From a virus: DNA of 31,398 nt. Positions 1 to 31,398 of the stretch are shown one piece after another. A model generated the notes under the pieces. That model searched no databases, was not told the DNA's origin, and saw nothing but the letters and a program-made list of their open reading frames with translations. The stretch covers positions 1 through 31,398 of the IMG/VR virus record IMGVR_UViG_3300029251_000054, one strand, 5' to 3'. The translations under genes and the position numbers were made by a program. Within the stretch, counting starts at the first letter, position 1, and each line of letters begins with the position of its first letter.

Positions 1-98
1 TGGATGGGATAATTTTGAACATATTATAATTAAAGATAATTTGCCAGAACCTTGTGCCAAGACTTTAGAAAAAATTCTTATTCATAAGTATAATACTA
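1..98. repeat. Terminal overlap, left copy. Identical to 31300-31397, which closes the genome as a 31,299-bp circle
   Basis: Base-by-base comparison: 1-98 equals 31300-31397. The first mismatch is 99 (t) versus 31398 (g). The repeat lies inside a coding gene. Confidence 0.95.
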
Positions 99-454
99 TA
101 AATCCAAAATATGGATATAATGCTACAGATGGAGGTGACGGCACCTTAGGTATTGTATTCACTCAGGAAAGAAAAGATAAGATTAGAGCCAAATGTATTG
201 GAAGACATCCATCAGAAGAAACTCGAAAAAAGATGAGTAATAGTCATAAAGGTAAAGATTTGAGTTATTTAAATAATTCTTTTGGAAATAATCCTAGAGC
301 TAAAAAAGTAGGTGCATATAAAGACGATGTTCTTATTAAAGAATATGATTGTGCTGTTAGTGCTTCTTTAGATGTTGGAGTTCATAAAAATTCTATTTCT
401 AAAGCAATTAGAGGAGGCTATAAAGTAAAAGGATATATTTGAAAATACGCTTAA
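2..454 (+). CDS. GIY-YIG homing endonuclease #1, 3' part. The gene starts at 31163 and crosses the circular junction (196 aa in total)
   Basis: The frame is continuous with 31163..31398 through the terminal overlap. It is a paralog of 28202..28801 (KYGWDNFEHIIIKDNLPE.CAKTLE.ILIHKY). Track ORF 41..442 stops at TGA 440-442, but the frame stays open to TAA 452-454 and yields the C-terminal motif GYI-W-KYA. Confidence 0.85.
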
Positions 455-462
455 ACAGAAAT

Positions 463-487
463 AGGAGGGCAAATAACCCTCCTTTTT
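463..487. terminator. Rho-independent-type hairpin between convergent transcription units (probably bidirectional)
   Basis: The stem aggaggg (463-469) pairs with ccctcct (477-483). The loop is caaataa and a T-run extends to 487. It sits between the plus-strand stop at 454 and the minus-strand stop at 490. Confidence 0.7.
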
Positions 488-489
488 GT

Positions 490-630
490 TTATTCCATTA
501 TCTCAAATAATTTCTCATCTTTAGGTATTAATTCTCCAGTTTGTAAATCTACTAAGAATTTACTATTTTCGGGAATTACATAAACGTAATTTACTCCATT
601 TAAGCATAATTTATATGTAAAGTACTTCAT
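490..630 (-). CDS. Hypothetical small protein (46 aa)
   Basis: Minus-strand ATG at 630 and TAA at 492-490. Translation begins MKYFTYKLCLNGVNYVYVIPENSKFLVDLQTGELIPKDEKLFEIME. It starts 1 nt after the upstream gene's stop. It is below the track length cutoff. Confidence 0.5.
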   Translation of the reverse strand: MKYFTYKLCLNGVNYVYVIPENSKFLVDLQTGELIPKDEKLFEIME

Positions 631-631
631 A

Positions 632-766
632 TTAGTCAATATATGTTGCGTTAGGAATCTCTGGTTTTTCTTCTACTTCTTCCCAAACTAACCCTTTGTT
701 TTGGTTCTCTAATTGAACTATTCTATATTCTAGTTCTTCAAGCTTTTTAAATAAAAAATCATCCAT
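632..766 (-). CDS. Hypothetical small protein (44 aa)
   Basis: Minus-strand ATG at 766 and TAA at 634-632. Translation is MDDFLFKKLEELEYRIVQLENQNKGLVWEEVEEKPEIPNATYID. It is tightly packed in the operon. Confidence 0.5.
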   Translation of the reverse strand: MDDFLFKKLEELEYRIVQLENQNKGLVWEEVEEKPEIPNATYID

Positions 767-768
767 AA

Positions 769-981
769 TTAATCAAATTTTGAAATAAATGTAAAATCTC
801 TTTGTGCTAATACTCTATCTATAATATCTCCTAATTTCTTAGAATTCTCTTTAAATTCATTCATTCACTTATCAAACTCCTTAATAGTATCTTCTGACTT
901 TTTAAGAGTTTCTTTAATATCCGCAATTCTATTTAAATATGAATCTTGGTCTAATAATAATGTATCCTTTGCTTCTAACAT
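769..981 (-). CDS. Hypothetical coiled-coil protein (70 aa, code 4)
   Basis: Minus-strand ATG at 981 is preceded by aaaagg. The frame is open to TAA 771-769 if TGA 867-865 is read as Trp (..EFDK-W-MNEFKEN..). It overlaps the helicase 3' end by 53 nt. An alternative short start is the ATG at 864. Confidence 0.5.
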
Positions 982-2647
982 CCTTTTCAGTTTTAGTTGA
1001 TTTTCTAACTTCAAAATAGTGTTCAATATCTGTTGCCTTTGCAGTTTTCTTTATACCTAAAGTCTTATATACATCAGCAATCTTATTCTTCAATAAAGCT
1101 AAATTGTAGAACATACCATTCTGAATATCTCTTGTAAGTAATTTGGCAACCTTATTTGGCATATTTTTATCTGATATTTTAACAAGCTCCTCTTTAATAT
1201 CTTTAATGCAATAACCCAAAGTTGCCATTCTTTCAAATCCCAGTTTATTAATTGCATCATTTAACCAAGGATATTTAATTAGAGCTTCATTTAATATAGG
1301 AGTTCCAACTTTAAATTTAGTTTCCCATTCAGCTCTTACATCTTTAATAAGCTCCTGAAATGACTTACTAGGAGCTTCAAGGTCTATCTTAATAGATTTA
1401 TCTTCACATTCAGCAACCTTTATAAAGCCATTCTTTAGATATTCATTAGTAAGATTAACTCTTACAGAGTATAAACCTCTTGCAACCTTAAAATTGAATA
1501 TATCTACTTTAGCCATATTTGGGTCAAATTCAAAGGTATAATCCTCATTAATTTGAATATATGTGTCACTTGTAAAGTCTGTAATCTTCTTACGAGCTAC
1601 TTCTGGAAGCTGATTATATGATTCAACTGCAATCTTTGTTTCTTCAATATTCTTTAATGTATTATTTTTAAATGTATCATAATCTATCTCTGCATATCTT
1701 GTGGCTGAATAAAGATGAGTAATCCAATTTAAATATTTACTATTTCTAATTCTACCAGCAATCTGTTGAATTGAAGTAGATATATCTAAAAGAGTCTGAG
1801 CTTTAGAGGAATCACTAACTACAATAATTCTTCCATTTTCATCATAAATATCAGAACCTTCAAATACAGTAGAAGTCAACAAATTAATCTTCTTAGGTTC
1901 ATCATTTACTGAAGAATTCTGAATTGGCAGTTTAGTTCTATTATTCTTAGAATATACTACTCTTGTGTTATCTGCTGTAAGTTTAGCCTTTAAAATAAGA
2001 TTCTTTATAAAGTCAACAGAGTTAACAAATATATAAGCATTACCTTCAACATTTCCACTTAAAAATCCATTTATAAGCTTAATTGTGGAAGCTTCTACAT
2101 TCTTGCATTTGACAGTCTGAACTTTAGTCTCGATAACATCATCCCATTCTTGTCTTACTAATGGCAGTTTAGACAATTCATCTAAAACAAATTCATCTTC
2201 TAATGGAGTTGCAGTCATAAATGTATATTCTTTAAATAGACTATATGTCTTTAATACATCTTTAATTGCATCTCTTCTAAGACTATATTGATTAAATAGT
2301 ATATGATATTCATCAATTAATAAGCTATAATCTTTAGGATTTACTGCTTCTATTACTTTATAAAGAGAATTATAAGTAACAATGATTTTAGGGCATTTAA
2401 CTGAAGATACATAAGCTTCAATGTCTGTCTTAGTAATACCTTGATAAACTCCAAAAATAGGCTCTTTACGTCTTTCATTAGGATATTGAGCAAGTTTATT
2501 CTCAACTAAGCTTACAAATGGAATACATATAACATAAGGCTTATCACACTCTAAAGCCATTGAAGTTCCACCACATCCTACTTTACCTTTGTCAAATAAG
2601 CAGTTAGTAGGTAATTCATTGATTAAATTATTTAAATAAGTTTTCAT
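929..2647 (-). CDS. SF2 (DExH-type) helicase, 572 aa
   Basis: Intact track ORF. It has a P-loop-like GKVGCGGTS, motif II LLIDEYH, motif III MTATP, motif V-like TSTVFEGSDI and motif VI QQIAGRIRN. It ends in TAG. It has no TGA, and all 4 Trp codons are TGG. Confidence 0.8.
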   Translation of the reverse strand: MKTYLNNLINELPTNCLFDKGKVGCGGTSMALECDKPYVICIPFVSLVENKLAQYPNERRKEPIFGVYQGITKTDIEAYVSSVKCPKIIVTYNSLYKVIEAVNPKDYSLLIDEYHILFNQYSLRRDAIKDVLKTYSLFKEYTFMTATPLEDEFVLDELSKLPLVRQEWDDVIETKVQTVKCKNVEASTIKLINGFLSGNVEGNAYIFVNSVDFIKNLILKAKLTADNTRVVYSKNNRTKLPIQNSSVNDEPKKINLLTSTVFEGSDIYDENGRIIVVSDSSKAQTLLDISTSIQQIAGRIRNSKYLNWITHLYSATRYAEIDYDTFKNNTLKNIEETKIAVESYNQLPEVARKKITDFTSDTYIQINEDYTFEFDPNMAKVDIFNFKVARGLYSVRVNLTNEYLKNGFIKVAECEDKSIKIDLEAPSKSFQELIKDVRAEWETKFKVGTPILNEALIKYPWLNDAINKLGFERMATLGYCIKDIKEELVKISDKNMPNKVAKLLTRDIQNGMFYNLALLKNKIADVYKTLGIKKTAKATDIEHYFEVRKSTKTEKDVRSKGYIIIRPRFIFK

Positions 2648-2731: not shown

Positions 2732-2854
2732 GTAAAGGTTAAAATTAAACTGGGAATTAATCCCAGCTCAATTTTCAATATGGAAGTAGTTTTAGTTTGA
2801 TAGTACAAATATACAACAATTTTTCTCAATCTCCAAATAATTTAAGTATTATTT

Positions 2855-3114: not shown

Positions 3115-3125
3115 TATATTTAATT

Positions 3126-3365
3126 ATGAAAAAGATAAATAAAATATTAGCTGGATTATTAGTACTTAGCTTTATTATAGCTGGTATTAGAGTATATAAT
3201 GCTTATGAAGACTACCAAACTAAAACATTTGAGCTTAGATTAGAACAGGCAGAACTCCAGCATAAATTAGACTCTGTAATGTGGTATAATCCTGGAAGTT
3301 CAGAAGTATCTGAATTATATGAACAGTATTGTGATGTAACCTTAAAAATTCATAATGTAAGATAA
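3126..3365 (+). CDS. Small membrane protein (79 aa)
   Basis: In-frame ATG at 3126 within track ORF 3084..3365. The N-terminal hydrophobic helix is KILAGLLVLSFIIAGIRVY. The track start at 3084 is non-ATG and overlaps the preceding ORF. Confidence 0.6.
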   Translation: MKKINKILAGLLVLSFIIAGIRVYNAYEDYQTKTFELRLEQAELQHKLDSVMWYNPGSSEVSELYEQYCDVTLKIHNVR

Positions 3366-3802
3366 TGAAAACAGATATAAGAAGTTTAGTCTTTATAAAG
3401 AATCTATTTAAAGATAAATATAATATAGAAATAGAATGATGTAAAGACGATTATTCCAGATATGATGGAACATTTACTTGGAATAATATAGATTATATAA
3501 TTGAAGTTAAAAGGAGAAAATTTAAATCAGATAAATATCCAACTACAATTATAAACAGGGATAAGTTTGATATACTTAGTAAATGTAACTCTATATTAGT
3601 CATTATATTTGAGGATGGAGTTTATATTTATAAAGATGTAAAAAGAGCTTTTATTAAAGATTCAATGAAATATGGAAGAAGTACAACTGATTTTGGAGGA
3701 GAATATAAATACTCTTTAAAAACAGAGTTATCTTTAAAGAAAGCAATTAAATTAGAAATAGACACAACTTTTAGTAATTATATAAGAAATGACGACATAT
3801 AA
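3365..3802 (+). CDS. PD-(D/E)XK-like nuclease-fold protein (145 aa, code 4)
   Basis: The ATG overlaps the upstream TAA (taATG). It is missing from the track because of TGA 3437-3439 (..NIEIE-W-CKDD..). It has a D..(D/E)xK-like signature, YDG...DYIIEVKRRK. It ends in TAA at 3800-3802. Confidence 0.55.
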
Positions 3803-4280
3803 GGCAATACCTGGATATGAAAACTATTTAATAGGAACTGACGGTTCGGTCTTGAGTACTAGAACCTCAGTTCCGAAAAATATCAAACCTCAACTTCAAA
3901 ATAGTGGATACTATTATGTTACTTTATATAATCCGTTTGGGCCAAAGAAATACCTATTACATAGACTAATGGCAGAAGTTTTCATAGGTAAAAATGACTT
4001 ATGTATTAATCATAAGGACGAAAATAAGCTAAATAATAACTTAGATAATTTAGAGTACTGTACTTATGAGTATAACAATAATTATGGCAGTCATAACATT
4101 AAAATGGGAATTTCTCATAAGAAAGCAATTAAACAGCTATCCTTAGATAGAAGTTTTATTAAGAGATGAGATTCCGCAATAGATGCTGAACGGGAGCTTA
4201 ATATACAATCCAGAAACATTGTAAAGGTTCTTAAAGGTCAGCGAAAAACAGCTGGAGGATTTATTTGGGAATATGAATAA
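3789..4280 (+). CDS. HNH homing endonuclease #1 (163 aa, code 4)
   Basis: NUMOD4-like N-terminus (IPGYENYLIGTDGSV) and HNH_3-like INHKDENKLNNNLDNLEYCT. Track ORF 3789..4169 ends at TGA 4167-4169, but the frame continues to TAA 4278-4280. This adds the DNA-binding tail ..KTAGGFIWEYE. Confidence 0.85.
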
Positions 4281-4581
4281 CAATGAAATAATAGAAAAAT
4301 ACTATCCATTTATTATGGAGTTAAAAGAAAAATTTGGTGCAGATGATGATTGCACACAAATGGTATGTATCGCACTTCTGGAAACATCTAATTCCAAGCT
4401 TCAGTCATTAGATAGTAAGAATGAGCTGAAGTATTGGATTACAAGAGTATTTAAGAATAATTGGTTTTCTAAGAATAGTAGATACTATTACCAATATAAA
4501 AAGTACTATGAAATATTTAAAGAGCCATTAGAACAACAAACGGATAATTTAGAGGATTGGTTAAATGAAGCAGAAGATTAA
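4273..4581 (+). CDS. Sigma-70 family region-2-like protein (102 aa), N-terminal half of a split sigma-like factor
   Basis: The pattern ..GADDDCTQMVCIALLE..(n)..LKYWITRVFKNNWFSKNSR resembles ECF sigma regions 2.1-2.4. No region 4 is present in this ORF. It ends in TAA at 4579-4581. Confidence 0.5.
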   Translation: MNNNEIIEKYYPFIMELKEKFGADDDCTQMVCIALLETSNSKLQSLDSKNELKYWITRVFKNNWFSKNSRYYYQYKKYYEIFKEPLEQQTDNLEDWLNEAED

Positions 4582-4831
4582 TATTGATGATTTATTAATT
4601 GAGTATAACTTTGAAATAGATACCTTTACAGAGATGGATGATAGATTACTTGCAATTTATCCGAAATGAGAGGCATTAAATAGAGCATATAAGACCATAA
4701 TTATCTTATATGCTGAATATCGAAGTTATAGAGAAGTTGGGAAGATTCTGGGAATTAGTCATACTACCATAGCAAGGACAATAACTAACATTAGAAACAA
4801 AATATGTTATGGAAGTTTGGAAGAAGTATAA
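4565..4831 (+). CDS. Sigma-70 region-4-like HTH protein (88 aa, code 4), C-terminal half of a split sigma-like factor
   Basis: ATG 4565 lies 17 nt before the stop of the upstream ORF and is in a different frame. It has one in-frame TGA at 4667-4669 (YPK-W-EAL). LNRAYKTIIILYAEYRSYREVGKILGISHTTIARTITNIRNKI looks like a region 4.2 HTH. It is absent from the track. Confidence 0.55.
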
Positions 4832-5357
4832 AGATTATAACATTGAAGTAAGTAATACAGGAAAAGTTAGGACTACAGAAAGAGATGTATTATATAAAGA
4901 TGGAAGAAGACATCATTATGATAGTAAAGAGTTAAAACAACACATTATTAGGCAATACTATTATGTAACTTTAAGTATTGATGGCAAATCAAAGAATTTT
5001 AGAGTTAATAGGTTAGTTGCAGAATGTTTTATAGAAAATCCATATAATTTACCTATAGTGAATCACAAAGATGAAAACAAGTTAAATAACTCTGCAGACA
5101 ATTTAGAATGATGTACTGCCAGTTATAATAATACATATAATGATTCTCATTTAAAAAGAGGTGTTAACTTACAAAACAAACGAAGTAAAAAAGTTTACCA
5201 ATATAGTTTAGATGGAACTCTTATTAAGATATGGCCTTCTATAAGAGAGATACGTAGAGTAAAAGGATATGATAATGGTCAGATAAGTAAGTGTTGCAAT
5301 AATAAATTAAAAAATAATATTAGCTATGGGTATATTTGGAAGTATTCTATTGATTAA
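4809..5357 (+). CDS. HNH homing endonuclease #2 (182 aa, code 4)
   Basis: The track ORF ends at TGA 5109-5111, inside the canonical motif NHKDENKLNNSADNLE-W-CT. The frame continues to TAA 5355-5357 and has the C-terminal motif GYIWKY. Confidence 0.85.
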
Positions 5358-5379
5358 TTTTATAGTAATAATATATGTA

Positions 5380-5658
5380 ATGTCTGGTATAGATGTTCTA
5401 ATTAGAAAGAAGATATGGGAGCGTTTATATGGTAAAATGCCTTTTAATGAGAATTGGATGTCTAAACCTTGAGGATGTGAGTGGTGCTTAGGAACTTGAA
5501 TAGGTCTTATAAGCTTATTTTGGTTGGGATTTACTCAGATAAATATATTCTTAGTGCTAGTTATTGCTTTTTATAATTTTATTATAAAGGATTGTATGAT
5601 TCTAATTAAAGATATGATTACCAAACTAATAGATATAGTTTATAAATACTTGGATTAA
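5380..5658 (+). CDS. DUF1360-like small membrane protein (92 aa, code 4)
   Basis: ATG 5380. An in-frame TTG at 5350 would add a hydrophobic N-terminus. Two in-frame TGAs lie at 5470 and 5497 (KP-W-GCEWCLGT-W-IGLISLFWLG). The Cys/Trp motif plus TM helices are typical of DUF1360. It ends in TAA at 5656-5658. Confidence 0.6.
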
Positions 5659-6013: not shown

Positions 6014-6374
6014 ATATCTTTATGCTGCAAGGTTATTTAACAAAGGATGGTCAAGGAATAAAGTAAGTGAAGAACTTCAAAGTAAATATAATGTAAGCCA
6101 ATCAACGGCTGCAAGATATATTGGAGAAGCTTATAAGATAATTGCTGAAAAGAATGATAACCTTATAAAAAATCTTAGACATATACAATTATCAAGATTG
6201 GAATCATTACTGGATACTGCTATTAGTAAGGGAGATATTAGAGCTGCAAATGAGATTATTAAGACTATAAATAGTATGTTTGGATTAAATCAACCTGAGA
6301 CTATTGTAGCTATTCAGAATAATGAAGTCCAGTTTAAATTTGGAGATCCAATTAACAATGACAAAAATATATAA
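5931..6374 (+). CDS. Terminase small subunit (putative, 147 aa)
   Basis: First ATG in track ORF 5925..6374. It has a basic N-terminus (KKKVGRPKK), an HTH-like NVSQSTAARYIGEAY and a helical C-terminus. It sits directly upstream of TerL and overlaps it. Confidence 0.6.
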   Translation: MKEQIKKKVGRPKKAEVEKEQIDEVKTKYLYAARLFNKGWSRNKVSEELQSKYNVSQSTAARYIGEAYKIIAEKNDNLIKNLRHIQLSRLESLLDTAISKGDIRAANEIIKTINSMFGLNQPETIVAIQNNEVQFKFGDPINNDKNI

Positions 6375-7605
6375 AGGATATAGCCCATTTATCTATCAAT
6401 TAAAGGTACATACTGCTTTAGAGCACTCTTATAGGTCTGGAAAAATATTTACTGTAAAAGCAAAGAGACAATGTGGTAAATCCTTTATGGCAGAAAATGA
6501 ACTATTACGATTTTCAATTAACTATCCTGGAAGTATTAGCTGTATTGTTGAACCAACTCTTACTAACTCCAGAAAGATATTTAAAGAGTTAGTAAAGGCA
6601 TTAGATGGCACAGATATTATTAAGAAAAAGAATGAATCTTTGCTTGAGATTGAATTTACTAATGGGAGTGAAATACTATTTAAATCTGCTGAGCAAAAAG
6701 ATTCATTACGAGGATTTACAGTTAGTGGAATATTAGTAATTGACGAAGCAGCTTATATATCAGATGAAGTATACGAAATTTTAACACCTATAGCTGATGT
6801 ATGAAATGCTCCAATACTTATAATTAGTACTCCAAGGTTTAGAGAAGGATTCTTTTATGAATGCTTTAAAAAAGGCTTTGATGGTAATTTTAGTAAATAT
6901 TATCAATCCTTTGATTGAGCATTAGAAGATACTTCTATGCTGTTAAGTGAGGATAAACTTGAAATGTATCGCCTTACAACCTCCAAAAATAAATTTAGAA
7001 CTGAATATCTTGGAGAGTTTGCAGATGATGATGGTTGCCTATTTAATAATATAGCTAACTGTATAATTGATAAAAAACCTGAATATCATAATCTCTATAT
7101 TGGAGTTGACTGGGCTACTGGTTCTGGTAAAGACTATACTTGTATTACAGCTTTAAATGAAAATGGGCAGATGGTCTTTATAAAGTATTTTAACAACAAA
7201 ACTCCAACAGAACAAGTTGATTTACTGACAAATATATTTACTGAGTATCAGGGATTTATAAAGATAGTTCAAGTTGAACAAAACTCAATAGGTTCAGTGT
7301 TTTATGATATTCTTGTAAAAAGGAATCCTAAATTACGGATAGTTAAGTTTTTAACTACTAATAAGTCTAAAGCAGCTATTGTAAATAAGCTACAAGCGGC
7401 ATTAGAAAATGAAAAGATTGGTATTTTAAAGGATGATAAACTATTAAATGAATTAAGACTATATGAAGCCAGTTATAATCCAAAGACTGGAAATGTATCA
7501 TATAATGCTCCATCTGGATTTAATGATGATACTTGTATATCTTTAATGTTAGCTTATGATGCTTTAAATACAAATAAAGGAACTTATAATATTGCAATTA
7601 AATAA
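6358..7605 (+). CDS. Terminase large subunit (415 aa, code 4)
   Basis: Track ORFs 6322..6804 and 6937..7605 share one frame and are joined through TGA 6802-6804 and TGA 6916-6918, with no TAA or TAG between. Walker A is KAKRQCGKSF and Walker B is ILVIDEAAY. The C-terminal half is RNaseH-like (IGVDWATGSGKDYT ... NDDTCISL). Confidence 0.85.
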
Positions 7606-8389
7606 TGATAAAGAATTGGAATGAAATGGATTTATCTCATTATAAAAGACTGTTTGAGATAATACGAAAAGACTGGGAAAATGAATTAGATATGAATTTA
7701 GCTATGGTATCTGTACTTAGTGATATACCTATAGAAGATATAACTAATATGGAAGTAAACAAGCTACAAGAGTTTATAAATAATCTTAAATTTATAGAGA
7801 CTCCATATAAGCCAAAAACCCCAGAAACTACTTATAATATTGGTAATAAAGAATATAAAGTCTTTTTTAATGTTAATAAGATGACGGCCAGTCAATATAT
7901 TGACTTTCAGAATTTTTATAAGCAGTATGATGATTTTATGCCTAATCTGGCAGCTTGTTTCTTACTACCTAATGGAAAGAAGTATGGAGAAGATTATGAC
8001 CCTATTGATGAGGCAGAATTCTTAAATACCCATCTAACAATAGATATATTTTCAGACATAATGTTTTTTTTTGTAAACTTATTGCAAGTATCAACGCTGA
8101 GTACCCTACACTCTTCGGAAAGGGAGATGAAGAAGAGACTAAGGAAAACAAGGGACAAACTGGAAAGGAGGAAACTTCTGAAGAGCTTAATACAGACGAG
8201 ACGATTAATCCTTTTACTCAAAAATGAAGCTGAATTATCTGAATAGATAAGGTAAGTGAAGTTACCAGATTTAATTGGCACCAGATATATGATATGCAGA
8301 TTAAAGAGTTTCTTAACATTATATGCTATGTTATAGATAAAGCTAATGAAGAAAATAGACAGATTGAAGAATGAAAAAGAAAACATTAA
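7605..8389 (+). CDS. Conserved phage protein that needs a -1 shift at a T9 run (about 261 aa). It may be assembly/chaperone-like
   Basis: Frame 0 runs from 7605 to the T9 run at 8064-8072. The -1 frame then runs to TAA 8387-8389 and gives a plausible sequence: ..FFFCKLIASINAEYPTLFGKGDEEE...PFTQK-W-S-W-II-W-IDKVSEVTRFNWHQIYDMQIKEFLN.. (4 TGA codons). The frame-0 continuation to 8246 is basic and low-complexity. Confidence 0.55.
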
Positions 8390-8390
8390 C

Positions 8391-8440
8391 TGTAACCTTT
8401 TTACTCATATTTGGTACTAAGATAATATAAAAAAGTTACA
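8391..8440 (+). repeat. 50-nt dyad-symmetric intergenic element, copy B (sense on the plus strand)
   Basis: Sequence tgtaacctttttactcatatttggtactaagataatataaaaaagttaca starts 2 nt after the stop at 8389. It is followed by TATAAAAT, as is copy A. It matches copy A(rc) at 43 of 50 positions and copy C(rc) at 42 of 50. Confidence 0.6.
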
Positions 8441-8447
8441 TATAAAA

Positions 8448-8510: not shown

Positions 8511-8996
8511 ATGAATATTCAAGAATTAAAGTTCTCAAATTTAAGTGAGCTATTAAGGAAGTGAGGAGATCTTATAATTTCTCTTTATAGACAGGAATTA
8601 GTTAAAACCAGATCTGATGACACTGGAGCATTAGGTAATAGTTTAAACTATATAGTTGAGACTCAAGATGGAGACTATGAGGTTAATTTTAGCTTATTAG
8701 ATTATTGAGAATATGTTGAAGAAGGCAGAGCTGCTGGTAAATTTCCTCCATTATCTGATATAAAGAGTTGGATTAAAACTAAGCCAGTAATTCCAAGACC
8801 TTATAATGGCAAGTTACCTACTGTAGATCAACTTGCATATTTAATTGGAAGAAAGATACATCTTCAAGGAACTCAAGGTAAACATCCATTATCAAATACT
8901 ATAGAATATATAGAAAATAACTATATGGAACTTCTTGATGATGCAATTACAAAAGATTTAGAAACACAAGTTGATAATGTATTTAAAAACTTTTAA
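8511..8996 (+). CDS. Virion neck/tail-completion-like protein (161 aa, code 4), similar to the HK97 gp10 family
   Basis: ATG 8511 to TAA 8994-8996, through TGA 8562-8564 and 8706-8708. Motifs are TGALGNSLNY..., LLDY-W-EYVEEGRAAGKFPP and IKSWIKTK. It is entirely absent from the track. Confidence 0.6.
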
Positions 8997-8998
8997 AA

Positions 8999-20898: not shown

Positions 20899-20988
20899 AT
20901 GGCTATTAAATATACAACACCAGAAGTGGCAAAATTATCAGAAGAACAGAAAGCAATAGCTACTAATAAAAACTGAGTATTAGCGTAA
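20899..20988 (+). CDS. 29-aa remnant homologous to the C-terminal tail of the LRR proteins
   Basis: MAIKYTTPEVAKLSEEQKAIATNKN-W-VLA aligns with the last ~25 aa of 23447..24307 (..SLTEEQKSQITSKGWSITY) and 25666..26634 (..ALTEEQKALATSKNWTLASA). A TAG lies immediately upstream in frame. TGA is at 20974-20976. Confidence 0.45.
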
Positions 20989-23446: not shown

Positions 23447-24307
23447 ATGAATATTAGAGATGATTTAAAAGCATTTTATGTAGGTGACAGACGAGGTACT
23501 GCTATTTATGTTGGCAGTACCAAAGTCTGGCCTACCAGTATTTGCTCCCCTATAGTATTTAAAAGTAATGATTTTAAGCAATTAGTTATAGATAATATAT
23601 TTCCAGGACAGGCTGAAATTACTGATTGTGATGCAAATACTGTAGATACTTGATATGTTAAAGGTAGTGGTAGTGGTATATTTTACAGTTTATTTGAAAG
23701 TATTCTTATTGAAGATGCATCTGATATGGTGTATTTTCCAAACGCAAATAAAGGAGCAGCAAATGGTTTATTTTATGGGTGTACAAATTTAAAAATAATT
23801 CCTAATATACTATCGAATTTCGCACATTTTGGACAAACATTTCAATTATGCTCATCGTTAGTATCTGTACCAGATATTAATAATACACAAGCTATTAATT
23901 ATTATAATATGTTTGACGGATGTTCATCTTTAAAAACTGCTCCTAATATAAATATGGATAATGCCATAGATGTTGAGTATATGTTTAGGGGATGTATCAG
24001 TTTAGAATCCGTTCCATTGTATAATGCAGAAAACTGGCAAAATTACCGAAATATATTTGATTCTGGGCCTTTTTCTTATTTGACAGATTTAGGAGGGTTT
24101 ACTAATATAGGTAAGAGTACCAAAGTGGACATATTAAATTTATCAAATTTACCTGCATTAACAAATCAATCAATAAATAATGTTATAGATGGATTATATG
24201 CTACAGATGAAAATTTGATTATTAAATTTCATCAAACTGTGTATAACTCATTAACAGAAGAGCAAAAATCACAAATCACCAGTAAAGGCTGGTCAATAAC
24301 ATATTAG
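23447..24307 (+). CDS. BspA/DUF285-type leucine-rich-repeat protein 1 (286 aa, code 4), a candidate receptor-binding protein
   Basis: Track ORFs 23447..23653 and 23726..24307 are joined through TGA 23651-23653. It has tandem F.GC.SL repeats (LFYGCTNLKIIP, FQLCSSLVSVP, MFDGCSSLKTAP, MFRGCISLESVP). Confidence 0.75.
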
Positions 24308-24547: not shown

Positions 24548-25150
24548 ATGATTATACTTAAAAATACTAAAAACACACAAACTTTCTATGTAAGTAAGAA
24601 ATGTGGAATTGAATCTGGACAACTTCCTGTTGGTTCTTATACTAAGATTGAATCAGATGAAAGATTCCAGCCTAAAGGTAATTACATTTCCGAAGAGAAA
24701 GCAGAAGAGTTAATTAATACTAAAGTAACAGAAAGTATTGAAGATCAAGTTCCTCCTTTAGTAGATCAATCTATAGATGCTAAGCTTGTGCCAATTAATA
24801 CTGAGATTACTAATCTTAAAGGGGAAGTTGAGGAGTTAGAAACTTCTAAAATGGAAGTATTTCAAGCAAATCAACCTCTATCTTTACATAGAAATGGAGA
24901 AGGTCTGCAATTATCTGTAGATTTAAGTAACTATGCAACTAAAGCAGAAATTCCTGATATTAGTGATTTTGCTACTAAAGAAGAAGTTGCACTTAAAGCA
25001 GATAAAAGTGAGTTATCTAATTATGTAACTACAGAGGCATATAATACAAAGATGACAGAGTTAGATGGAGAAATCTCAGCAATTAAAGCTCAGATTGGTA
25101 ATATTTCAACTACTCTTGATACAATTAATGGTGAAATTCCAAATGAATAG
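24548..25150 (+). CDS. Tail fibre protein 2 (200 aa), a short paralog of fibre 1
   Basis: It shares ..[40 protein letters not shown].. with fibre 1 (..TQLSVDLSGYQPVGDYATN.., KADKSEIPTK). It ends in TAG, 8 nt into the HNH gene. Confidence 0.7.
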
Positions 25151-25664
25151 AGTATTAACAAATTATCCTAACTATAGTGTATCTTCTACAGGAGATGTAT
25201 ATAGTAACCCATTGACTTTTAAAGATTCTATTGGAAGAACCAGAAAACAAATACATAAAAAGCTAAAACAGCATATAGATAAATATGGCTATAATTATGT
25301 AATTCTAGTATCTGGCTTAGATAAACCTAAAGCTATTAAAGTTCACAGACTAGTAGCAGAAGCATTTATTCCAAATCCTGACAATCTACCATATGTTAAC
25401 CATATAAATGAAAATAAGACAGATAATAGGGTAGAAAATTTAGAATGATGTGATGCAAAGTATAATAATACATATGGAACTAGAATAAATAGATGTATTG
25501 ATAAAATTAGTAAACCTGTAGGGCTATTTATTAATGATTTACTAGTTAAAACATATAAAAATGCAATTGAAACATCAATAGATGGGTATACTCATAGTAG
25601 AGTTATAGATTGTCTTAAAGGAAGAACAGACACTTATAAAGGGGTAAAATTTAAATATATCTAA
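25143..25664 (+). CDS. HNH homing endonuclease #3 (173 aa, code 4)
   Basis: ATG 25143 lies within track ORF 25065..25448. The motif [20 protein letters not shown] carries TGA at 25446-25448. The frame continues to TAA 25662-25664. Confidence 0.85.
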
Positions 25665-25665: not shown

Positions 25666-26634
25666 ATGGCAAATACAATTTCTGATAAATTAGAGTATCT
25701 TGAAGGCACTAAGAGTGCTATTAAAGATGCTATTATAGCTAAAGGTGTAGCTGTTGAGGATACTGCAACCTTTAGAAGTTATGCAGAAAAGATTGGGGAA
25801 ATATCTGGAGGTGGAGGAGGTAAAATTGATTTATCTAAATTTCCTTTATCAATAGGATATAGTGATATCACTAAGTTTAGAGATGGTGGTGAAGCTAAAT
25901 TAGGGGATTTGTTTGTACTAAATAAGTCAAGCTGAGAGTCTTTTTTTAATGGATGTTATGCTACTAGAGATGCTGAATTCACTTTTGATTGCCAAGGTAA
26001 AACCGCTGATTATTTGTTTGCTGCAAACCGAGATCCTAGTTATATAACAAAAATAACATTATTAAATGTGGGGGATCAGGGCATTAGTCTATTTGAAAAT
26101 CAAACGCAATTAGTCGAAATAGATGCCGATTTACATTTAATTAATTACTCTAATGTATTTAAATATTGTAGAAGCCTAAAAGTTCTACCTAGACTTGATT
26201 TCTTTAATTCTGTACAAAATGAATTTACTTTTTCAAACTGTAGTAGCTTAGAAGAAATTCCTGATATAACTTGTAAAAGTGCTCCTAATAGTTCATTGAT
26301 GTTTGAAAATTGTACATCATTAAAACGTTTAGGTAAAATTACAATAAGTGATTTACAGCCATTCTCACAATCTGCGTTTGGTTATACTTGATCTAGCTCT
26401 TATTATTTAAATAACTTAACAGATTTTGGTGGTGTAACTACACCACATAACTTGTATTTGAATAATCTTCCTGCACTTACATCTCAGTCGGTCGATAATG
26501 TTCTAGAAGCAGTATCAGATTTAACTGGAACTTCTACCCAAACTATTACATTTAATTCTACGGTTTATGCAGCTCTTACAGAAGAGCAAAAAGCTTTAGC
26601 TACATCCAAGAACTGGACATTAGCTTCTGCATAG
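25666..26634 (+). CDS. BspA/DUF285-type leucine-rich-repeat protein 2 (322 aa, code 4)
   Basis: Track ORFs 25666..25935, 26014..26391 and 26452..26634 share one frame, joined through TGA 25933 and 26389. It has F.(N/G)C.SL repeats (FFNGCYAT, FKYCRSLKVLP, FSNCSSLEEIP, FENCTSLKRLG). The C-terminal tail is shared with LRR protein 1. Confidence 0.75.
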
Positions 26635-26741: not shown

Positions 26742-27134
26742 ATGAATTATTCAATATTAATGCAGAATACTATTACTAAAGAAGTTTATGTATATAACTT
26801 AGAAAATCAGAATTATGCTGAAAATATCTACTATAAGTTTGATATTACATTATCTGATGATATGCCTGATGGTGAATATCAGTATATTCTGTTTAGTAAC
26901 CCAAATAAACTTGAAGTAATTGTAGATGTAAATAATCCTATGCAGTCAGAGCTATATGGTAATCCAGTTATTCTGGTAACTTATGAAAATACTCTTACTA
27001 CAGGAACACAGATATTAGTTGCTGGTAAACCTATACCTGTATTGAGTTCAGGACTAATAAGAGTTGGAGATTATCAGAATAATAAATACCAATACGATAA
27101 ACAAAACAAATATATGGCTTATGAGCGAAAATAA
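26742..27134 (+). CDS. Hypothetical protein (130 aa) upstream of the portal gene
   Basis: First ATG in track ORF 26733..27134 (the track start is TTG). It has no TGA and overlaps the portal start by 14 nt. Confidence 0.55.
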   Translation: MNYSILMQNTITKEVYVYNLENQNYAENIYYKFDITLSDDMPDGEYQYILFSNPNKLEVIVDVNNPMQSELYGNPVILVTYENTLTTGTQILVAGKPIPVLSSGLIRVGDYQNNKYQYDKQNKYMAYERK

Positions 27135-28212
27135 AACAAAAGTACAATTAAGTGCAATTGATCCTGTTGTAGTGTCAAATTTAGTACTTCCTGTAGAATC
27201 GAGAAAAAGGGGTTCTGATTGGATTTCTTGGGGTGAAGATAATCGCTATCCATTATATCTATGGGATTTATACTTAAATGTAGCTACTCTTCAATCTATC
27301 ATTAATGGGACTGCTGACTTTATTGTTGGTAATGATGTTAAATGCAATGCTCCAGGATTTGAAGTAACTGTAAATAAGAAAGGTGAAACTATTATGGATA
27401 TTATGCGTAAAGTATCTAAAGATAAGATGATTTTTGGAGGATATGCTTTACAAATAATTAGAGATATGTTAGGTAGAGTTTCAGAGATCTATTATCTTGA
27501 CTTTATGAAGATTCGTTCTGATGAAAAGAATGAAGTATTCTATTATGCCGATGATTGGTCTGCTTGGTCTATTAAAGCTATCAAATATCCAAAATTTAAT
27601 TATTCAGATGATAATCCTACAAGTGTTGTTTATAATAAGGGCTATATAACAAGAAAAGTATATCCAGTTCCTGTTTATGGTGCAGCTATCCTATCTTGCG
27701 AAACTGAGAAGAATATTAATGAGTTCCATCTAAATTCTCTTCATAACGGATTTATGGGCAATCTTATCATTAACTTTAATAATGGACAGCCTACAGACGA
27801 AGTTAAAGAAGAGATTGAGATGAATATTAATGAGAAATTCTCAGGATTTCAAAATGCTGGTAGAGTTCTTATTTCATATAATGATGATGAGACAAATAAG
27901 ACTACTATTGAGCGTTTAGACTCTGATGATTTTGATGAGAAATATAGTGCTTTATCTGAAAGAACAAGAGAACAGATATTCTGCGCATTTAGAGCTAATA
28001 GTGTACTTTTTGGCCTTAACTACTCAAGTGGATTCAACGAACAAGAATTTAATGAAGCTTTTAAACTTTATAATCGTACAGTAGTTAGACCAATTCAGGT
28101 CGAAATAGTAGATACATTTGATAAGATATTTGGAATGAAAGGTTCAATAACTATAACTCCTTTTAGCTTAACTCCAAATGGACAAGAAGATAGCAAACAA
28201 AATGTTGAATAA
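27121..28212 (+). CDS. Portal protein (363 aa)
   Basis: ATG 27121 (MSENKTKVQ..) lies within track ORF 27064..28212. The size and sequence character fit small siphovirus portals (..FGGYALQIIRD..VSEIYYLDFMKIR.., ..NGFMGNLIINFNNG..). It has no TGA and all Trp codons are TGG. Confidence 0.65.
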   Translation: MSENKTKVQLSAIDPVVVSNLVLPVESRKRGSDWISWGEDNRYPLYLWDLYLNVATLQSIINGTADFIVGNDVKCNAPGFEVTVNKKGETIMDIMRKVSKDKMIFGGYALQIIRDMLGRVSEIYYLDFMKIRSDEKNEVFYYADDWSAWSIKAIKYPKFNYSDDNPTSVVYNKGYITRKVYPVPVYGAAILSCETEKNINEFHLNSLHNGFMGNLIINFNNGQPTDEVKEEIEMNINEKFSGFQNAGRVLISYNDDETNKTTIERLDSDDFDEKYSALSERTREQIFCAFRANSVLFGLNYSSGFNEQEFNEAFKLYNRTVVRPIQVEIVDTFDKIFGMKGSITITPFSLTPNGQEDSKQNVE

Positions 28213-28801
28213 TTATACTGTTTATTGCCATATAAATAAGTATAACAATAAGCTATATTTTGGCATTACTGGACAAAGTGTGCAAGATAGGTGAAAAAAT
28301 GGATATGGATACTCTACTCAAGCTTACTTTTATAAAGCGATACAAAAATATAGCTGAGATGGATTTGAACATATCATAATTAAAGATAATTTACCAGAAA
28401 CTTGTGCTAAGACATTAGAAAGGATATTGATACATAAATATAAAACAAATACTCCTGAAAATGGTTACAATATAACATCAGGAGGAGAAGGTACATACGG
28501 GTATTCTTTTTCTAATGAGAGTAGAGCAAAAATGTCAAATTCTAAAAAAGGTAAAACACCCTGGAATAAAGGAATCTATACTTTGGAAACACTTATTAAA
28601 ATTGGAAATGCTTCCAAAGGACGAATTACTAGAGTTAAGCCTATATTAAGATTTGATATGAATGGGAATTTTATTGCAAGATATAATTCAATGAAAGAAG
28701 CTGTTAAATCAGTTAATGGAGAACGTTCTGGATTATATTTAGCTTTAAAAGAAAATAGACCTTATAAAAACAATAAATTTATTTATGATGGAACAACTTA
28801 A
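28202..28801 (+). CDS. GIY-YIG homing endonuclease #2 (199 aa, code 4), inserted after the portal gene
   Basis: ATG 28202 overlaps the portal 3' end by 11 nt. The N-terminus is YTVYCHINKYNNKLYFGITG. In-frame TGAs lie at 28292 (DR-W-KNGYGY) and 28355 (KYS-W-DGFEH). Only the last 124 aa appear in the track. Confidence 0.85.
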
Positions 28802-29474
28802 CTATAGAAATGTACTGCTTATTTCAGAAGACTATATAAAGTCAAATTCTACATTAGATAACAATATATCGGGTAAATATTTACAAGCAGCCATCACAAG
28901 TGCTCAGGATGTAGAACTTCAGTCAACTATTGGTACTAAGCTATTGGAAGCATTACAAAAGAAATGTATTAATTGGATTGATCCTCATACCCCAGTTCAT
29001 CCAATAGAACCTCCTGAGCCACTTCCAAGTGATTCTATTGATGATTCTGATAACTACAGATATAAAGAGCTATTAGACTATTATGTTCAGCCTTATTTAC
29101 TTTATCAAGTACTTAGCGAGATAGTAATTCCTATATCTTATAAGCTTGGTAATTTTGGAGTTATGAGAACTGATGATGAGAAGGATATTGCTGCTGAAGC
29201 AAGTCAAGTAAATCAAATTAAGAAGTATTATAGAGATAAAGCGGATTTCTTTAAGACTCGTTTACAGGACTTTATAATTACATATTATAATGAATTCCCT
29301 GAGCTTTATACATATAAGCCATTAAAGGATATGTTTCCCAATCTTTACTCTAGCTCATCTTGCAATATTTGGCTTGGTGGAGCAAGAGGTAAAGGATGGA
29401 GCGTTAAACCTGGAGAGGGGCCTCTTCAAAGAGCTTATGATTTCCCTTCAAGTAATAATAAAAAGAGTAAGTAA
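28785..29474 (+). CDS. Putative head-tail connector/head-completion protein (229 aa)
   Basis: Intact track ORF. The N-terminal pattern ..EDYIKSNSTLDNNISGKYLQAAITSAQDVELQSTIGTKLLEAL resembles gp6-like connector families. The position after the portal gene fits. Confidence 0.4.
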   Translation: MMEQLNYRNVLLISEDYIKSNSTLDNNISGKYLQAAITSAQDVELQSTIGTKLLEALQKKCINWIDPHTPVHPIEPPEPLPSDSIDDSDNYRYKELLDYYVQPYLLYQVLSEIVIPISYKLGNFGVMRTDDEKDIAAEASQVNQIKKYYRDKADFFKTRLQDFIITYYNEFPELYTYKPLKDMFPNLYSSSSCNIWLGGARGKGWSVKPGEGPLQRAYDFPSSNNKKSK

Positions 29475-29476
29475 TT

Positions 29477-29902
29477 ATGACCTACTATGAGATAATTAGC
29501 AATTTAAAAGCTTGTGCATTAGAAGAGCCAAACATCAATTTTGTAGGAAGTAAAGATATTTATGAGTTAAATAGCTTACCAACTATTGAGTATAATGTGT
29601 TCTATATAACACCTAATACTTTTAGTGTAGATGAAGATACTATTACTTACTCTTTAAACCTATACTTCGTATCAAGATGGGATGAGACTGATAACAACCA
29701 ATTGGAGGAACAGTCAGCAGGTATGCTTGCACTGCAAAATATAATTAATCGTTTTAATAACCTATATCCAGAAGTTGAAATAGCTTATCCTTTAATTTAT
29801 ACTCCATTCTATCAAAAGTTCAAAGATATTACCTGCGGAGTGTTTGTTAGAGCTGATTTCCAAGTTGACAACACACTGGGTACTTGCACTGATGATATGT
29901 AA
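29477..29902 (+). CDS. Hypothetical structural (neck?) protein, 141 aa
   Basis: Intact track ORF, tightly coupled to its neighbours. The function is inferred from position only. Confidence 0.5.
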   Translation: MTYYEIISNLKACALEEPNINFVGSKDIYELNSLPTIEYNVFYITPNTFSVDEDTITYSLNLYFVSRWDETDNNQLEEQSAGMLALQNIINRFNNLYPEVEIAYPLIYTPFYQKFKDITCGVFVRADFQVDNTLGTCTDDM

Positions 29903-30558
29903 TGGAAAATAAATTAAATTGGTTTGGTAAAGTATTAGAATGGGTTGATAAATATGGATTACTAAAGATATTTAAAGCAGGGATTGGATTAATATTTATA
30001 TCCTATGTAATGGTTATTACACTTAATCCCTCTATTGTTTATAATAAGGTTGTAACCTATATTGAACAAACTCACAATTCTAAAACTATTGCAAGAAATG
30101 AAGCAACTTTGAAGATTAAATATAAACTTAAAGAATTGCTTCAAAGCACAAATGCTGATAGAGCTTGGGTTATTGAATATCATAATGGAACTACTGGATT
30201 AGGAGGACTTCCGTTTACTTATGGAGTAATGAATGCCGAGGAAGTAAAACCAGGAATAAGATCTGTAAGTAGCCATTATAAAGATTTCCTGTTATCTGAC
30301 TATACTTCAATTATAGAGTTTTCTAAGAATGATGGATGGTTTGGTAATATAGATAGTTTAGAAGCAGATGATCCAAGATTATATTATGCATTTAAATCCA
30401 ACAGAGTGAATGAAATAGCAGTATTTTATTTAAAGACTGAGGATAAAGATATTGGCATTTTAGGTTTGTCATTCTGTGATACACCTATGCCTTATGATAC
30501 TTGAGTACATCTAAGAAGAGCTGGAATACAGATAAGTGTAATTTTAAATAAAATATAA
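29902..30558 (+). CDS. N-terminally membrane-anchored protein (218 aa, code 4), first gene of the lysis cluster
   Basis: The track ORF ends at TGA 30502-30504, and the frame continues to TAA 30556-30558. The TM helix is IFKAGIGLIFISYVMVITL. It is followed by a ~150-aa soluble domain (ADRAWVIEYHNGTTGLGGLPFTYG..). Confidence 0.6.
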
Positions 30559-30559
30559 T

Positions 30560-30721
30560 ATGAAATATTGGTTAAAATATGTAATTGCAGTAGTTATTAT
30601 TCTGCTGATATGTTTACTAATCAAAGTAATTCCTTTTTGGATTACTGTAGTATTACTTGTAATAGGTGTGGCTTCACATCTATTTTATAGATATGTTATG
30701 ATTAAAGATATACTTAAATAA
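30560..30721 (+). CDS. Putative holin (53 aa, two TM helices)
   Basis: Translation is MKYWLKYVIAVVIILLICLLIKVIPFWITVVLLVIGVASHLFYRYVMIKDILK. Its TAA overlaps the endolysin ATG (taATG). It is below the track cutoff. Confidence 0.6.
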   Translation: MKYWLKYVIAVVIILLICLLIKVIPFWITVVLLVIGVASHLFYRYVMIKDILK

Positions 30722-31170
30722 TGAAGTATTTCACACTCGAAGAATTAACAAGATCTGATACTGCTTCAATTAAGCATATAAATAACACTCCAGATGAGAG
30801 TATAACAGAGCACCTGATAGAGTTGGTCGAGAAGCTTTTAGACCCAATAAGAGAGAGATGGGCAAAGTATTGTGATGACAATCAGCTTGGCAATGCAGGC
30901 ATCAGGATTTCCTCTGGTTTTAGGAATAAGGAGCTTAATAAAGCAGTAGGAGGATCTTTAACATCTGCACATCTAACAGGGTATGCAGCAGACCTTCAAA
31001 ATGTCTCTGGAAGTAGAGAAGAGTTTTATCAATTCCTATTAAACTTTTTGAAGGATAGAAATTTCGATGAATGTTTTATAGAAAAAAGTAGTACATCTCA
31101 GTGAGTGCATATTGCTTTATATAGTATTAAAGGATTACAACGAAGAAAAGTAGGTAAATTATATGTATAG
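30721..31170 (+). CDS. Endolysin, peptidase M15 (VanY/L-Ala-D-Glu peptidase-like), 149 aa, code 4
   Basis: The motif is SGFR...LN...GG..TSAH-x6-D (SAHLTGYAAD). The track ORF stops at TGA 31102-31104, and the frame continues ..SQ-W-VHIAL.. to TAG 31168-31170. This restores the distal His of the Zn site. Confidence 0.8.
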
Positions 31171-31398
31171 TATATATGTTCATTTAAACAAGATTAACGG
31201 TAAGAAATATATTGGTATTACTTGTAAGAAGCCAGAAATACGATGAGCAAATGGTCTGGGTTATAAAAAACAGCCGTTTTGAAACGCTATAACAAAATAT
31301 GGATGGGATAATTTTGAACATATTATAATTAAAGATAATTTGCCAGAACCTTGTGCCAAGACTTTAGAAAAAATTCTTATTCATAAGTATAATACTAG
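31163..31398 (+). CDS. GIY-YIG homing endonuclease #1, 5' part (continues at position 2 through the circular junction)
   Basis: ATG 31163 overlaps the endolysin 3' end by 8 nt. Translation is MYSIYVHLNKINGKKYIGITCKKPEIR-W-ANGLGYKKQPF-W-NAITKYGWDNFEH.., with TGA at 31244 and 31280. Confidence 0.85.
31300..31397. repeat. Terminal overlap, right copy (identical to 1-98)
   Basis: See the left copy. Confidence 0.95.

Follow-up and report, generated by a model that had tools for sequence, protein, structure and literature searches.

A complete 31-kb gut phage genome that appears to read TGA as tryptophan and carries no recognisable decoder

The use of TGA as a tryptophan codon is already established in gut phages, and small recoded gut phages have been described in two surveys (Borges et al., 10.1101/2021.08.26.457843; Cook et al. 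2024, PMC11210395). A suppressor Sup-TCA tRNA was detectable in just 35% of the genomes assigned to translation table 4 (code 4) in the Borges preprint and in just 15% of those in Cook et al., leaving most code-4 phage genomes (65-85%) without a detectable suppressor tRNA. Here we describe one further, well-documented case, the IMG/VR virus record IMGVR_UViG_3300029251_000054, positions 1 to 31,398 (called the window, which means this whole stretch of 31,398 nucleotides). The window is a complete, circularly assembled genome of a siphovirus-like tailed phage from animal and human gut metagenomes, and the comparisons below assign its in-frame TGA codons to tryptophan. Since it is complete, only 31 kb long, 97% coding, common in public gut metagenomes and without recognisable decoding machinery, it may serve as a minimal test case for the translation of such genomes.

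Among the described systems, the small Garnet, Amethyst (each about 34 kb) and Topaz (about 22 kb) phages of Borges et al. resemble the window in size and gut habitat. Their likely host is a member of the Bacteroidota, as we propose for the window, and their clades mix codes 11, 15 and 4 with repeated recoding, as does the family defined by the large terminase (TerL) of the window. The agreement is by description only (size, habitat, likely host phylum, code mix). In-frame recoded stops occur in 52% of the window genes, inside the 26-71% range of the phages of standard-code hosts in Borges et al., and both have a divergently placed early or lysogeny gene free of recoded stops. However, the Garnet, Amethyst and Topaz representatives are TAG-recoded, with Garnet and Amethyst drawn with a suppressor tRNA, whereas the window is TGA-recoded and has neither an integrase nor a suppressor tRNA. 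The TGA-recoded crAss-like and Jade/Agate-type phages (Yutin et al. 2021; Borges et al.) read TGA as tryptophan in standard-code gut hosts, as proposed here for the window, and the concentration of their recoding in structural and lysis genes may be listed as a further likeness. Those phages are 100-200 kb in size and usually carry Sup-TCA tRNAs, sometimes together with a tryptophanyl-tRNA synthetase (TrpRS) and release factor 1, in a standard-code 'code-change' operon, whereas the window has none of these. They also keep a clear standard-code early block, whereas TGA is found in all modules of the window bar a few genes. Phages of Mycoplasma and Spiroplasma (MAV1, P1) share with the window TGA as tryptophan, the lack of a suppressor tRNA, a low GC content and an apparent lack of TGA stops. 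They differ in that TGA makes up 77-95% of their tryptophan codons and occurs in 82-93% of their genes, as compared with 33% and 52% in the window, and in that their hosts are wall-less, whereas the lysis cassette of the window has a peptidoglycan peptidase related to those of Bacteroides phages. Neither megablast nor tblastn with TerL found a sequence relationship between the window and these phages. The code-25 phages that infect Absconditabacteria and Gracilibacteria (Liu et al. 2023, PMC10746230) likewise use TGA as a sense codon genome-wide without a suppressor tRNA, but their TGA encodes glycine, matches the code of the host and occurs in about 90% of genes.

The unique sequence of the window is about 31.3 kb with a GC content of 30.1%, positions 1-99 being repeated at 31300-31398. 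Because of this 99-nt terminal repeat, of which 98 nucleotides are identical, we regard the genome of about 31.3 kb as circularly assembled. The sole mismatch in the overlap, at the last base, is G (31398) versus T (99) and probably arose as an artefact at the assembly end. By exact protein matches the window is contig Ga0495776_010948 of Joint Genome Institute (JGI) metagenome 3300045988, which is likewise 31,398 bp long, and IMG/VR holds two close relatives from the same metagenome. Contigs of about 31.4 kb that are nearly identical to the window are present in human gut metagenomes (study PRJEB6997). Pfam matches to Terminase_6N/6C, Phage_portal, the prohead protease family Peptidase_S78_2, Phage_tail_C and an M15 endolysin constitute a tailed-phage set. 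The head proteins are supported by PHROG matches, and the tape-measure role was assigned from size and position only. No sheath protein was detected in family scans of the window proteins, a missing match being weak evidence. Searches against cultured phages with 25 kb of the window (megablast) and with the capsid protein (tblastn) gave no match. With start sites taken from code-4 gene calls on an identical contig, the curated gene set comprises 42 genes, and 96.7% of the genome is coding under code 4.

An earlier reading of the letters and translated frames, made without database searches (the sequence-only reading), counted 45 in-frame TGA codons in 22 of about 44 genes, with about 37 genes ending in TAA, 7 in TAG and none in TGA. 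In the curated set the number of TGA-containing genes stands and the totals are slightly lower: 42 in-frame TGA codons are distributed over 22 of the 42 genes, of which 35 end in TAA, 7 in TAG and, as had been claimed, none in TGA. TGA 29890 and TGA 29893 precede the probable start codon, the ATG at 29902. Coding density under tables 11 and 4, which that reading had proposed as a check, behaves as predicted: the coverage by greedily chosen open reading frames (ORFs) rises from 0.78 under code 11 to 0.94 with TGA as sense (0.967 in the curated set), while the number of ORFs falls from 58 to 40 and their mean length grows from 141 to 246 amino acids. This rise is larger than the 10% over code 11 by which Borges et al. 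recognise code 4 in contigs of 5-100 kb. When TAG or TAA was treated as sense in control runs, the ORFs became more numerous and shorter. The frame does stay open after each in-frame TGA, for a median of 203 codons as compared with 8 codons after the other 1075 TGA trinucleotides; the shortest open run is 17 codons, bar TGA 440, which is followed by a TAA 4 codons on, within a conserved motif. All 42 genes can be closed by TAA or TAG without implausible overlaps or extensions. The base at +4 is T after 20% of the in-frame TGA codons versus 48-53% of the true stops. Judged from the sequence, TGA is a sense codon genome-wide, and TAA and TAG alone probably terminate genes, though TGA might occasionally serve in both roles. 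The JGI gene calls for Ga0495776_010948, which were made under the standard code and break up TerL, the tape-measure protein and the tail proteins into a multitude of short 'genes', speak for the opposite reading, in which the TGA codons are true stops in a degraded or pseudogenised element, or reflect assembly errors, selenocysteine or programmed readthrough at a few sites. We attach practically no weight to that reading. The same TGA positions are kept in independent assemblies from many samples, homology carries on past the TGA codons, the 42 sites in 22 genes have a sense-codon-like context, and open frames of hundreds of codons extend beyond them. The public JGI annotation of the record is wrong, and re-annotation is needed for gene calls so fragmented under code 11.

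Which amino acid, then, is specified by TGA? The sequence-only reading favoured tryptophan, and related genomes, masked alignment columns and the solved HNH endonuclease I-HmuI agree with it. Residues 13-422 of TerL match standard-code phage terminases (tblastn, PDB) in alignments that span the TGA codons at residues 161 and 199, and the corresponding columns in 120 family members hold W/H/K/Y/F and W/F/L, respectively. The window proteins were then compared codon by codon with 9 to 11 related contigs from other samples. The window TGA codons stand opposite TGA or TGG almost exclusively (in L004, 27 TGA, 7 TGG and 3 other), and 8 to 19 window TGG codons per relative locus stand opposite TGA. 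Because the interchange at aligned codons goes in both directions, the two codons behave as synonyms, and the alignments indicate that TGA and TGG drift into each other as such. As a guard against search bias, TGA was masked as X and 16 standard-code relatives were aligned. The 133 residues found at 19 masked positions include W 40, Y 22, F 15, L 9, H 8 and G 2, and on these same alignments the log-likelihood is best for W (-336.6), the next being Y (-389.5). In I-HmuI (1u3e), a W lies opposite TGA 25446, with the alignment running across the TGA. The tryptophan content of the proteins is 1.3% with TGA counted and 0.9% without. The aligned columns and the interchange with TGG exclude glycine, cysteine and a real stop, and point to tryptophan as the meaning of TGA throughout the genome. 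The glycine reading deserves a comment, as code-25 phages with code-25 hosts occur in human-associated samples and a distant TerL relative (L067, 29% identity) sits in a Gracilibacteria genome; the host would then be one of the Absconditabacteria or Gracilibacteria. With W and not G in the aligned columns (2 G against the W, Y and F counts above), code 25 is excluded; the relatives exchange TGA with TGG and not with GGN, the aligned residue of I-HmuI is W, and the probability left to glycine is negligible.

Paralogous motifs within the genome had been the earlier grounds for tryptophan, and every codon cited there was found in place and in its peptide context. TGA 440 (GYIWKYA before the stop) lies opposite TGG 5337 and TGG 4266, TGA 5109 and TGA 25446 both fall in NLEWC, and TGA 20974 (NKNWVLA before the stop) lies opposite TGG 26614 and TGG 24290. 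TGA 28355 (KYSWDGFE) does stand opposite TGG 31304, but the TGG at 5-7, which had been counted as separate evidence, is the same codon as 31304 seen through the terminal overlap. Conserved tryptophans of DUF1360 and BACON-like motifs had also been proposed to be encoded by TGA. DUF1360 is not supported for gene 5326-5658, in which Pfam gave no match to it even at E<=1, and the BACON-like motif shrinks to a single sub-threshold BACON_2 match in the 1144-aa tail protein (E=0.0066; 16.8 bits versus a cut-off of 25). The genes in which these codons lie are:

3789..4280, plus strand: HNH homing endonuclease (Pfam HNH_3, NUMOD4, I-HmuI_NUMOD-like), with TGA 4167 and with TGG 4266 in GFIWEYE; codons 4167 and 4266 switch between TGA and TGG among relatives.
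4809..5357, plus strand: HNH homing endonuclease, with TGA 5109 in NLEWC.
5326..5658, plus strand: 110-aa membrane protein of no Pfam family, with TGA 5470 and 5497, the latter opposite TGG in the standard-code relatives L010 and L011.
6322..7605, plus strand: TerL (Pfam Terminase_6N, Terminase_6C), with TGA 6802 and 6916.
11182..14616, plus strand: 1144-aa tail protein, with TGA 12061, 12208, 12760, 13111, 13771, 13975, 14173 and 14185; position 13975 is opposite W in 9 of 11 standard-code relatives.
20899..20988, plus strand: 29-aa ORF with TGA 20974, whose C-terminal motif (EEQKA.ATNKNW) is shared with the two leucine-rich repeat (LRR) proteins below; it may be a remnant or small paralogue of them.
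23447..24307, plus strand: BspA-type LRR protein (Pfam LRR_5, E=1.4e-4, 22.2 bits, below the 27.7-bit cut-off), with TGA 23651 and with TGG 24290 in the tail motif.
25143..25664, plus strand: HNH homing endonuclease, with TGA 25446 opposite W of I-HmuI.
25666..26634, plus strand: second BspA-type LRR protein, with TGA 25933 and 26389.
28178..28801, plus strand: GIY-YIG homing endonuclease, with TGA 28292 and 28355.
31163..31398 and across the circular junction to 454, plus strand: 196-aa GIY-YIG homing endonuclease, with TGA 31244, 31280 and 440; an equivalent 196-aa gene is present in L003.

The search with TerL returned more than 100 close relatives on contigs of 29-34 kb. Their genes do not translate under table 11, and hence the public gene calls had already used TGA as tryptophan. 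The helicase of a relative in this lineage is deposited in GenBank as 'Bacteriophage sp.'. The novelty that the sequence-only reading saw in a compact recoded phage was thus overstated, as small recoded gut phages, this lineage and gene calls of its relatives with TGA as tryptophan were all public. When the loci were classed by coding density into codes 11, 4 and 15, code 4 was assigned to the window clade (L001-L009, L091, L092) and to a separate lineage, L093, code 15 (TAG-recoded) to L099 and L105, and code 11 to L010, L011, L013, L096-L098 and L104. In a neighbour-joining tree of TerL the window clade is monophyletic and sister to standard-code lineages, with L093 and L099/L105 placed elsewhere. 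This scattering of the recoded lineages indicates that recoding arose at least three times in the family.

TGA is used sparingly in the window. It accounts for 32-33% of the tryptophan codons, whereas every other NNA/NNG pair is 64-95% A-ending; in the Mycoplasma phages its share is 77% (MAV1) and 95% (P1), with TGA in 14 of 15 and 9 of 11 genes, respectively. Its distribution is uneven too. Two groups of genes were compared with the rest, a helicase-flank group by the divergent promoter region (929-2647 and 632-766 on the minus strand, 2935-3365 on the plus strand) and a portal-side group (27121-28212, 28785-29902). Tryptophan columns fixed as TGG across the clade number 7 of 7 in the helicase flank and 8 of 10 on the portal side, as compared with 15 of 72 elsewhere (Fisher p = 6e-5 and 4e-4, respectively, for groups picked with the data in view). 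In the genes neighbouring these groups, TGG and TGA switch freely. The genes concerned, together with one ORF of the helicase operon, are:

929..2647, minus strand: SF2-helicase-like replication protein of 572 aa, divergently transcribed and TGA-free, its 4 tryptophan codons being TGG in every relative.
769..981, minus strand: 70-aa ORF downstream of the helicase, whose single tryptophan codon, TGA 867, is fixed as TGA in all relatives.
632-766, minus strand: small gene of the helicase flank, with tryptophan codons that are TGG in every clade member.
2935-3114 and 3126-3365, plus strand: first two plus-strand genes past the divergent intergenic region, TGA-free in all relatives.
27121..28212, plus strand: portal protein (Pfam Phage_portal), without TGA in the window or in any relative, the TGA-rich L008 lineage included.

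The 572-aa protein has no Pfam, PHROG or PDB match of its own. The annotation reads 'ATP-dependent RNA helicase [Bacteriophage sp.]' for a relative that falls in the 90% cluster of P0123 (73% identical to the window protein), and PF13307 is present in one homolog. A single-sequence AlphaFold model of the protein had a predicted local distance difference test score of 32 and was unusable. The pattern of fixed TGG suggests selection against TGA in the genes by the divergent promoter region and on the portal side, and suggests further that TGA is a second-class codon in the window. We propose that TGA may be decoded less well than TGG, or may still be spreading. Either would explain why TGA makes up only a third of the tryptophan codons despite the strong A-ending bias, and why the helicase, 632-766, 2935-3365 and the portal gene keep TGG only. 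The TGG-only genes of the helicase flank would be those that a standard-code cell could translate on entry. In this respect they parallel the stop-free integrase and helicase of a TAG-recoded prophage (L176, below) and the integrases in Borges et al. For experiment, the handful of genes translatable under the standard code provides a short, testable list of candidate mechanisms and genes.

What kind of cell would the phage enter? The host is probably a standard-code, cell-walled Bacteroidota bacterium. A holin-like gene and a peptidoglycan peptidase imply a wall and speak against Mycoplasma; they form a lysis cassette:

30560-30721, plus strand: 53-aa holin-like membrane protein.
30721-31170, plus strand: Peptidase_M15_3 endolysin (Pfam M15_3, E=5e-13), with TGA 31102.

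The best tblastn matches of this endolysin are endolysins of Bacteroides fragilis phages at about 45% identity, and its best matches come from Bacteroides phages (58 records), Prevotella phages (15 records) and crAss-like phages. Motifs resembling the Shine-Dalgarno (SD) sequence are at background in the window (3 of 30 genes versus 0.10 expected) and likewise across the whole TerL family; in Mycoplasma phages they are in clear excess (33% versus 5-9%). A standard-code sister lineage encodes an integrase with Arm-DNA-bind_5, and more distant TerL relatives lie within 189-587 kb contigs of Bacteroides metagenome-assembled genomes (MAGs). Homologs of the helicase-like protein (44-47% identity) are found in a Hymenobacter chromosome and also adjoining Bacteroidota-type integrases and BACON proteins. 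One such homolog belongs to L176 (positions 5900-21740 of ENA ERZ28598220 scaffold_71, 132 kb), a TAG-recoded prophage with a coverage of 0.914 under code 15 versus 0.743 under code 11. The prophage is integrated by a tRNA-Thr(CGT) with a Bacteroidota-type integrase, the flanking genes of the contig are standard-code, and the contig glutamine synthetase is 92% identical to that of Lentimicrobium. Its GC content is 32% as compared with 39% for the host, a GC below that of the host being also a feature of the phages of Borges et al. Neither its integrase nor its helicase homolog has an in-frame TAG, and no suppressor tRNA was found in the 16 kb of the prophage examined. With a standard-code Bacteroidota host, the phage would be recoded relative to its host, as are the gut phages of Borges et al. 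Hosts named by the MAG bins of small contigs (Acutalibacteraceae, Clostridia, 'Azospirillum CAG:239') were set aside as unreliable, these loci lacking an SD signal like the rest of the family. Promoter scans were of little help. The Bacteroides-type promoter TTTG...TAnnTTTG has 2 matches in the window versus 1.97 expected and is uninformative overall, one of the matches (2806-2837, minus strand) lying upstream of the helicase gene, and a sigma-70 promoter scan gave fewer matches than in shuffled sequence.

The host itself might instead decode UGA as tryptophan, being of Mycoplasmatales type or of an unrecognised recoded gut lineage, and the phage would simply share its code without a suppressor of its own. 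A complete genome without tRNA, release factor or TrpRS, TGA in early-region and late genes alike and in no curated gene as a stop, and the low GC of 30% would all fit such a host, and many code-4 phages are indeed Mycoplasma or Spiroplasma phages that match their hosts (Cook et al., PMC11210395). We nevertheless consider it unlikely. Apart from the wall implied by the lysis genes and the Bacteroides, Prevotella and crAss-like affinity of the endolysin, the use of TGA falls well short of that in Mycoplasma phages of similar GC, and the sister lineages, which agree with the window in GC, gene order and lack of an SD signal, are standard-code with Bacteroidota-type integrases. Among bacteria, UGA is known to be read as tryptophan in Mycoplasmatales, in endosymbionts of insects and protists and in a single family of Patescibacteriota, and none of these is a walled gut bacterium (PMC13092985). 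The organisms named at the top of the TerL and endolysin matches include no Mycoplasma phage.

If the host is a standard-code bacterium, how would UGA be decoded? ARAGORN at default settings found no tRNA in the window. Relaxed runs (with thresholds lowered to 80% and 60%, and in intron and mitochondrial modes) yielded nothing but calls of low score within coding regions, none of them credible, and an Rfam scan of the window with 4227 families gave 0 matches at E<=1. No release factor or TrpRS was found among the proteins scanned (Pfam, PHROGs). The complete genome thus encodes no tRNA, release factor or TrpRS, and it follows that UGA decoding comes from outside the phage genome or from a phage function other than a tRNA. 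No suppressor tRNA was detected in the sequence parts examined of the window's relatives, nor in those of L093, L099 and L105. A complete tRNA-Ser(GCT) does occur at 6154-6241 of L009, in the divergent intergenic region, within an insertion of about 100 nt that is missing from the sister L008; as a suppressor it was rejected and is regarded as an accessory tRNA. Could the genome still hide a decoder of its own, in the form of a tRNA that is non-canonical or split, or that contains an intron or is processed by a ribozyme, and to which ARAGORN and Rfam are blind? Borges et al. propose this for the low detection rate of suppressor tRNAs, and theta-ribozyme-linked tRNAs are known in recoded gut phages (PMC10879173). 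We hold it to be very improbable for the window. The relaxed calls and the Rfam scan offer nothing, and the 96.7% coding density leaves a 265-nt gap at 8246-8511 as the largest. As a hidden RNA gene this gap was rejected: it contains a short conserved ORF, a hairpin terminator and an AT-rich stretch resembling a promoter, and no conserved structured RNA is present.

Two kinds of decoder may be considered. The first would be a tRNA that reads UGA and comes from the host or from a co-resident element, either a UCA suppressor or a variant of tRNA-Trp(CCA) that has a 4-bp anticodon stem or a Hirsh-type change. A 2026 study (PMC13092985) shows that there are standard-code bacteria with tRNA-Trp(CCA) variants whose anticodon stem is 4 bp long or which bear Hirsh-type changes. 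It names Bacteroides oleiciplenus as one of the species where 4-bp and 5-bp forms of tRNA-Trp co-occur, and it shows that UGA readthrough in E. coli is promoted by a 4-bp variant made by engineering. In the second, the ordinary tRNA-Trp would read UGA after interference by the phage with release factor 2 (RF2). A specific version of the latter, in which a phage protein kept free of TGA disables or out-competes RF2 in a standard-code Bacteroidota host, so that host tRNA-Trp(CCA) or its 4-bp or Hirsh-type variant reads UGA without any suppressor tRNA, is in our view a rather doubtful prospect. The candidate trigger proteins would be the helicase-like protein and the small proteins encoded on either side of the divergent promoter region. 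If true, it would amount to a protein-triggered, tRNA-independent change of the genetic code.

Taking the evidence as a whole, we think it likely that the window is a complete gut phage that reads TGA as tryptophan in a standard-code Bacteroidota host with a decoder other than a phage tRNA. Several points weigh against this explanation. TGA is present in 22 of the 42 genes, among them genes of the early region and, with the fixed TGA 867, one of the helicase operon. It is spread so widely that a standard-code cell would need an efficient decoder from the start to express most of the genome, and a host that itself reads UGA as tryptophan would account for this early need more easily. The earlier claim that both early-region and late genes carry TGA is borne out in this respect, and the TGA codons in the early region and the helicase operon also count against a simple early/late switch. 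The +4 context of the in-frame TGA codons shows no bias to leaky termination. The TGA-free gene groups were defined post hoc, with related genomes as non-independent samples. As to the host, no direct link was found and there is no CRISPR spacer match; the recoded clade was not found in integrated form, all of its contigs being shorter than 50 kb; the GTDB species genomes hold no close relative, the best TerL identity being 52%; and the family members L013, L020 and L089 are binned with Clostridia MAGs.

The remaining annotated features of the window are:

3365..3802, plus strand: 145-aa early-region protein, with TGA 3437.
4565..4831, plus strand: 88-aa helix-turn-helix protein resembling sigma-70 region 4 (Pfam HTH_50, E=3e-8), with TGA 4667 fixed in all recoded relatives.
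8294..8389, plus strand: conserved 31-aa ORF inside the apparent gap 8246-8511, whose TGA 8372 is a fixed codon in every relative.
8511..8996, plus strand: 161-aa structural-module protein, with TGA 8562 and 8706; position 8706 is opposite W in 13 of 15 standard-code relatives.
8999..11179, plus strand: 726-aa tail or baseplate protein, with TGA 9398, 9452, 9503 and 10565.
14616..17375, plus strand: 919-aa tape-measure-like protein, assigned by size, composition and position, with TGA 15609, 16083, 16500 and 16974.
18697..19335, plus strand: GIY-YIG/NUMOD-type homing endonuclease, with TGA 19048.
19350..20252, plus strand: major capsid protein candidate (PHROG major-head and virion structural matches), TGA-free with 4 TGG.
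21211..23445, plus strand: 744-aa tail fibre (Pfam Phage_tail_C), with TGA 21691.
29902..30558, plus strand: 218-aa membrane-anchored protein, with TGA 30502.

Conservation at the amino acid level extends upstream of the ATG of the 31-aa ORF at 8294, in the -1 frame of gene 7605-8246, which could be a frameshift extension or an alternative start. The ORF is followed by a hairpin terminator at about 8450-8470.

Six homing-endonuclease genes, three HNH and three GIY-YIG/NUMOD, are accommodated in the 31-kb genome, and they are among its most TGA-rich genes. Their presence and position vary among close relatives, L005 having an additional HNH gene between the two giant tail genes, and they appear to circulate within the recoded clade. 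Between the GIY-YIG gene that crosses the circular junction and the minus-strand module converging on it lies a perfect bidirectional terminator hairpin (AGGAGGG...CCCTCCT) at 463-483.

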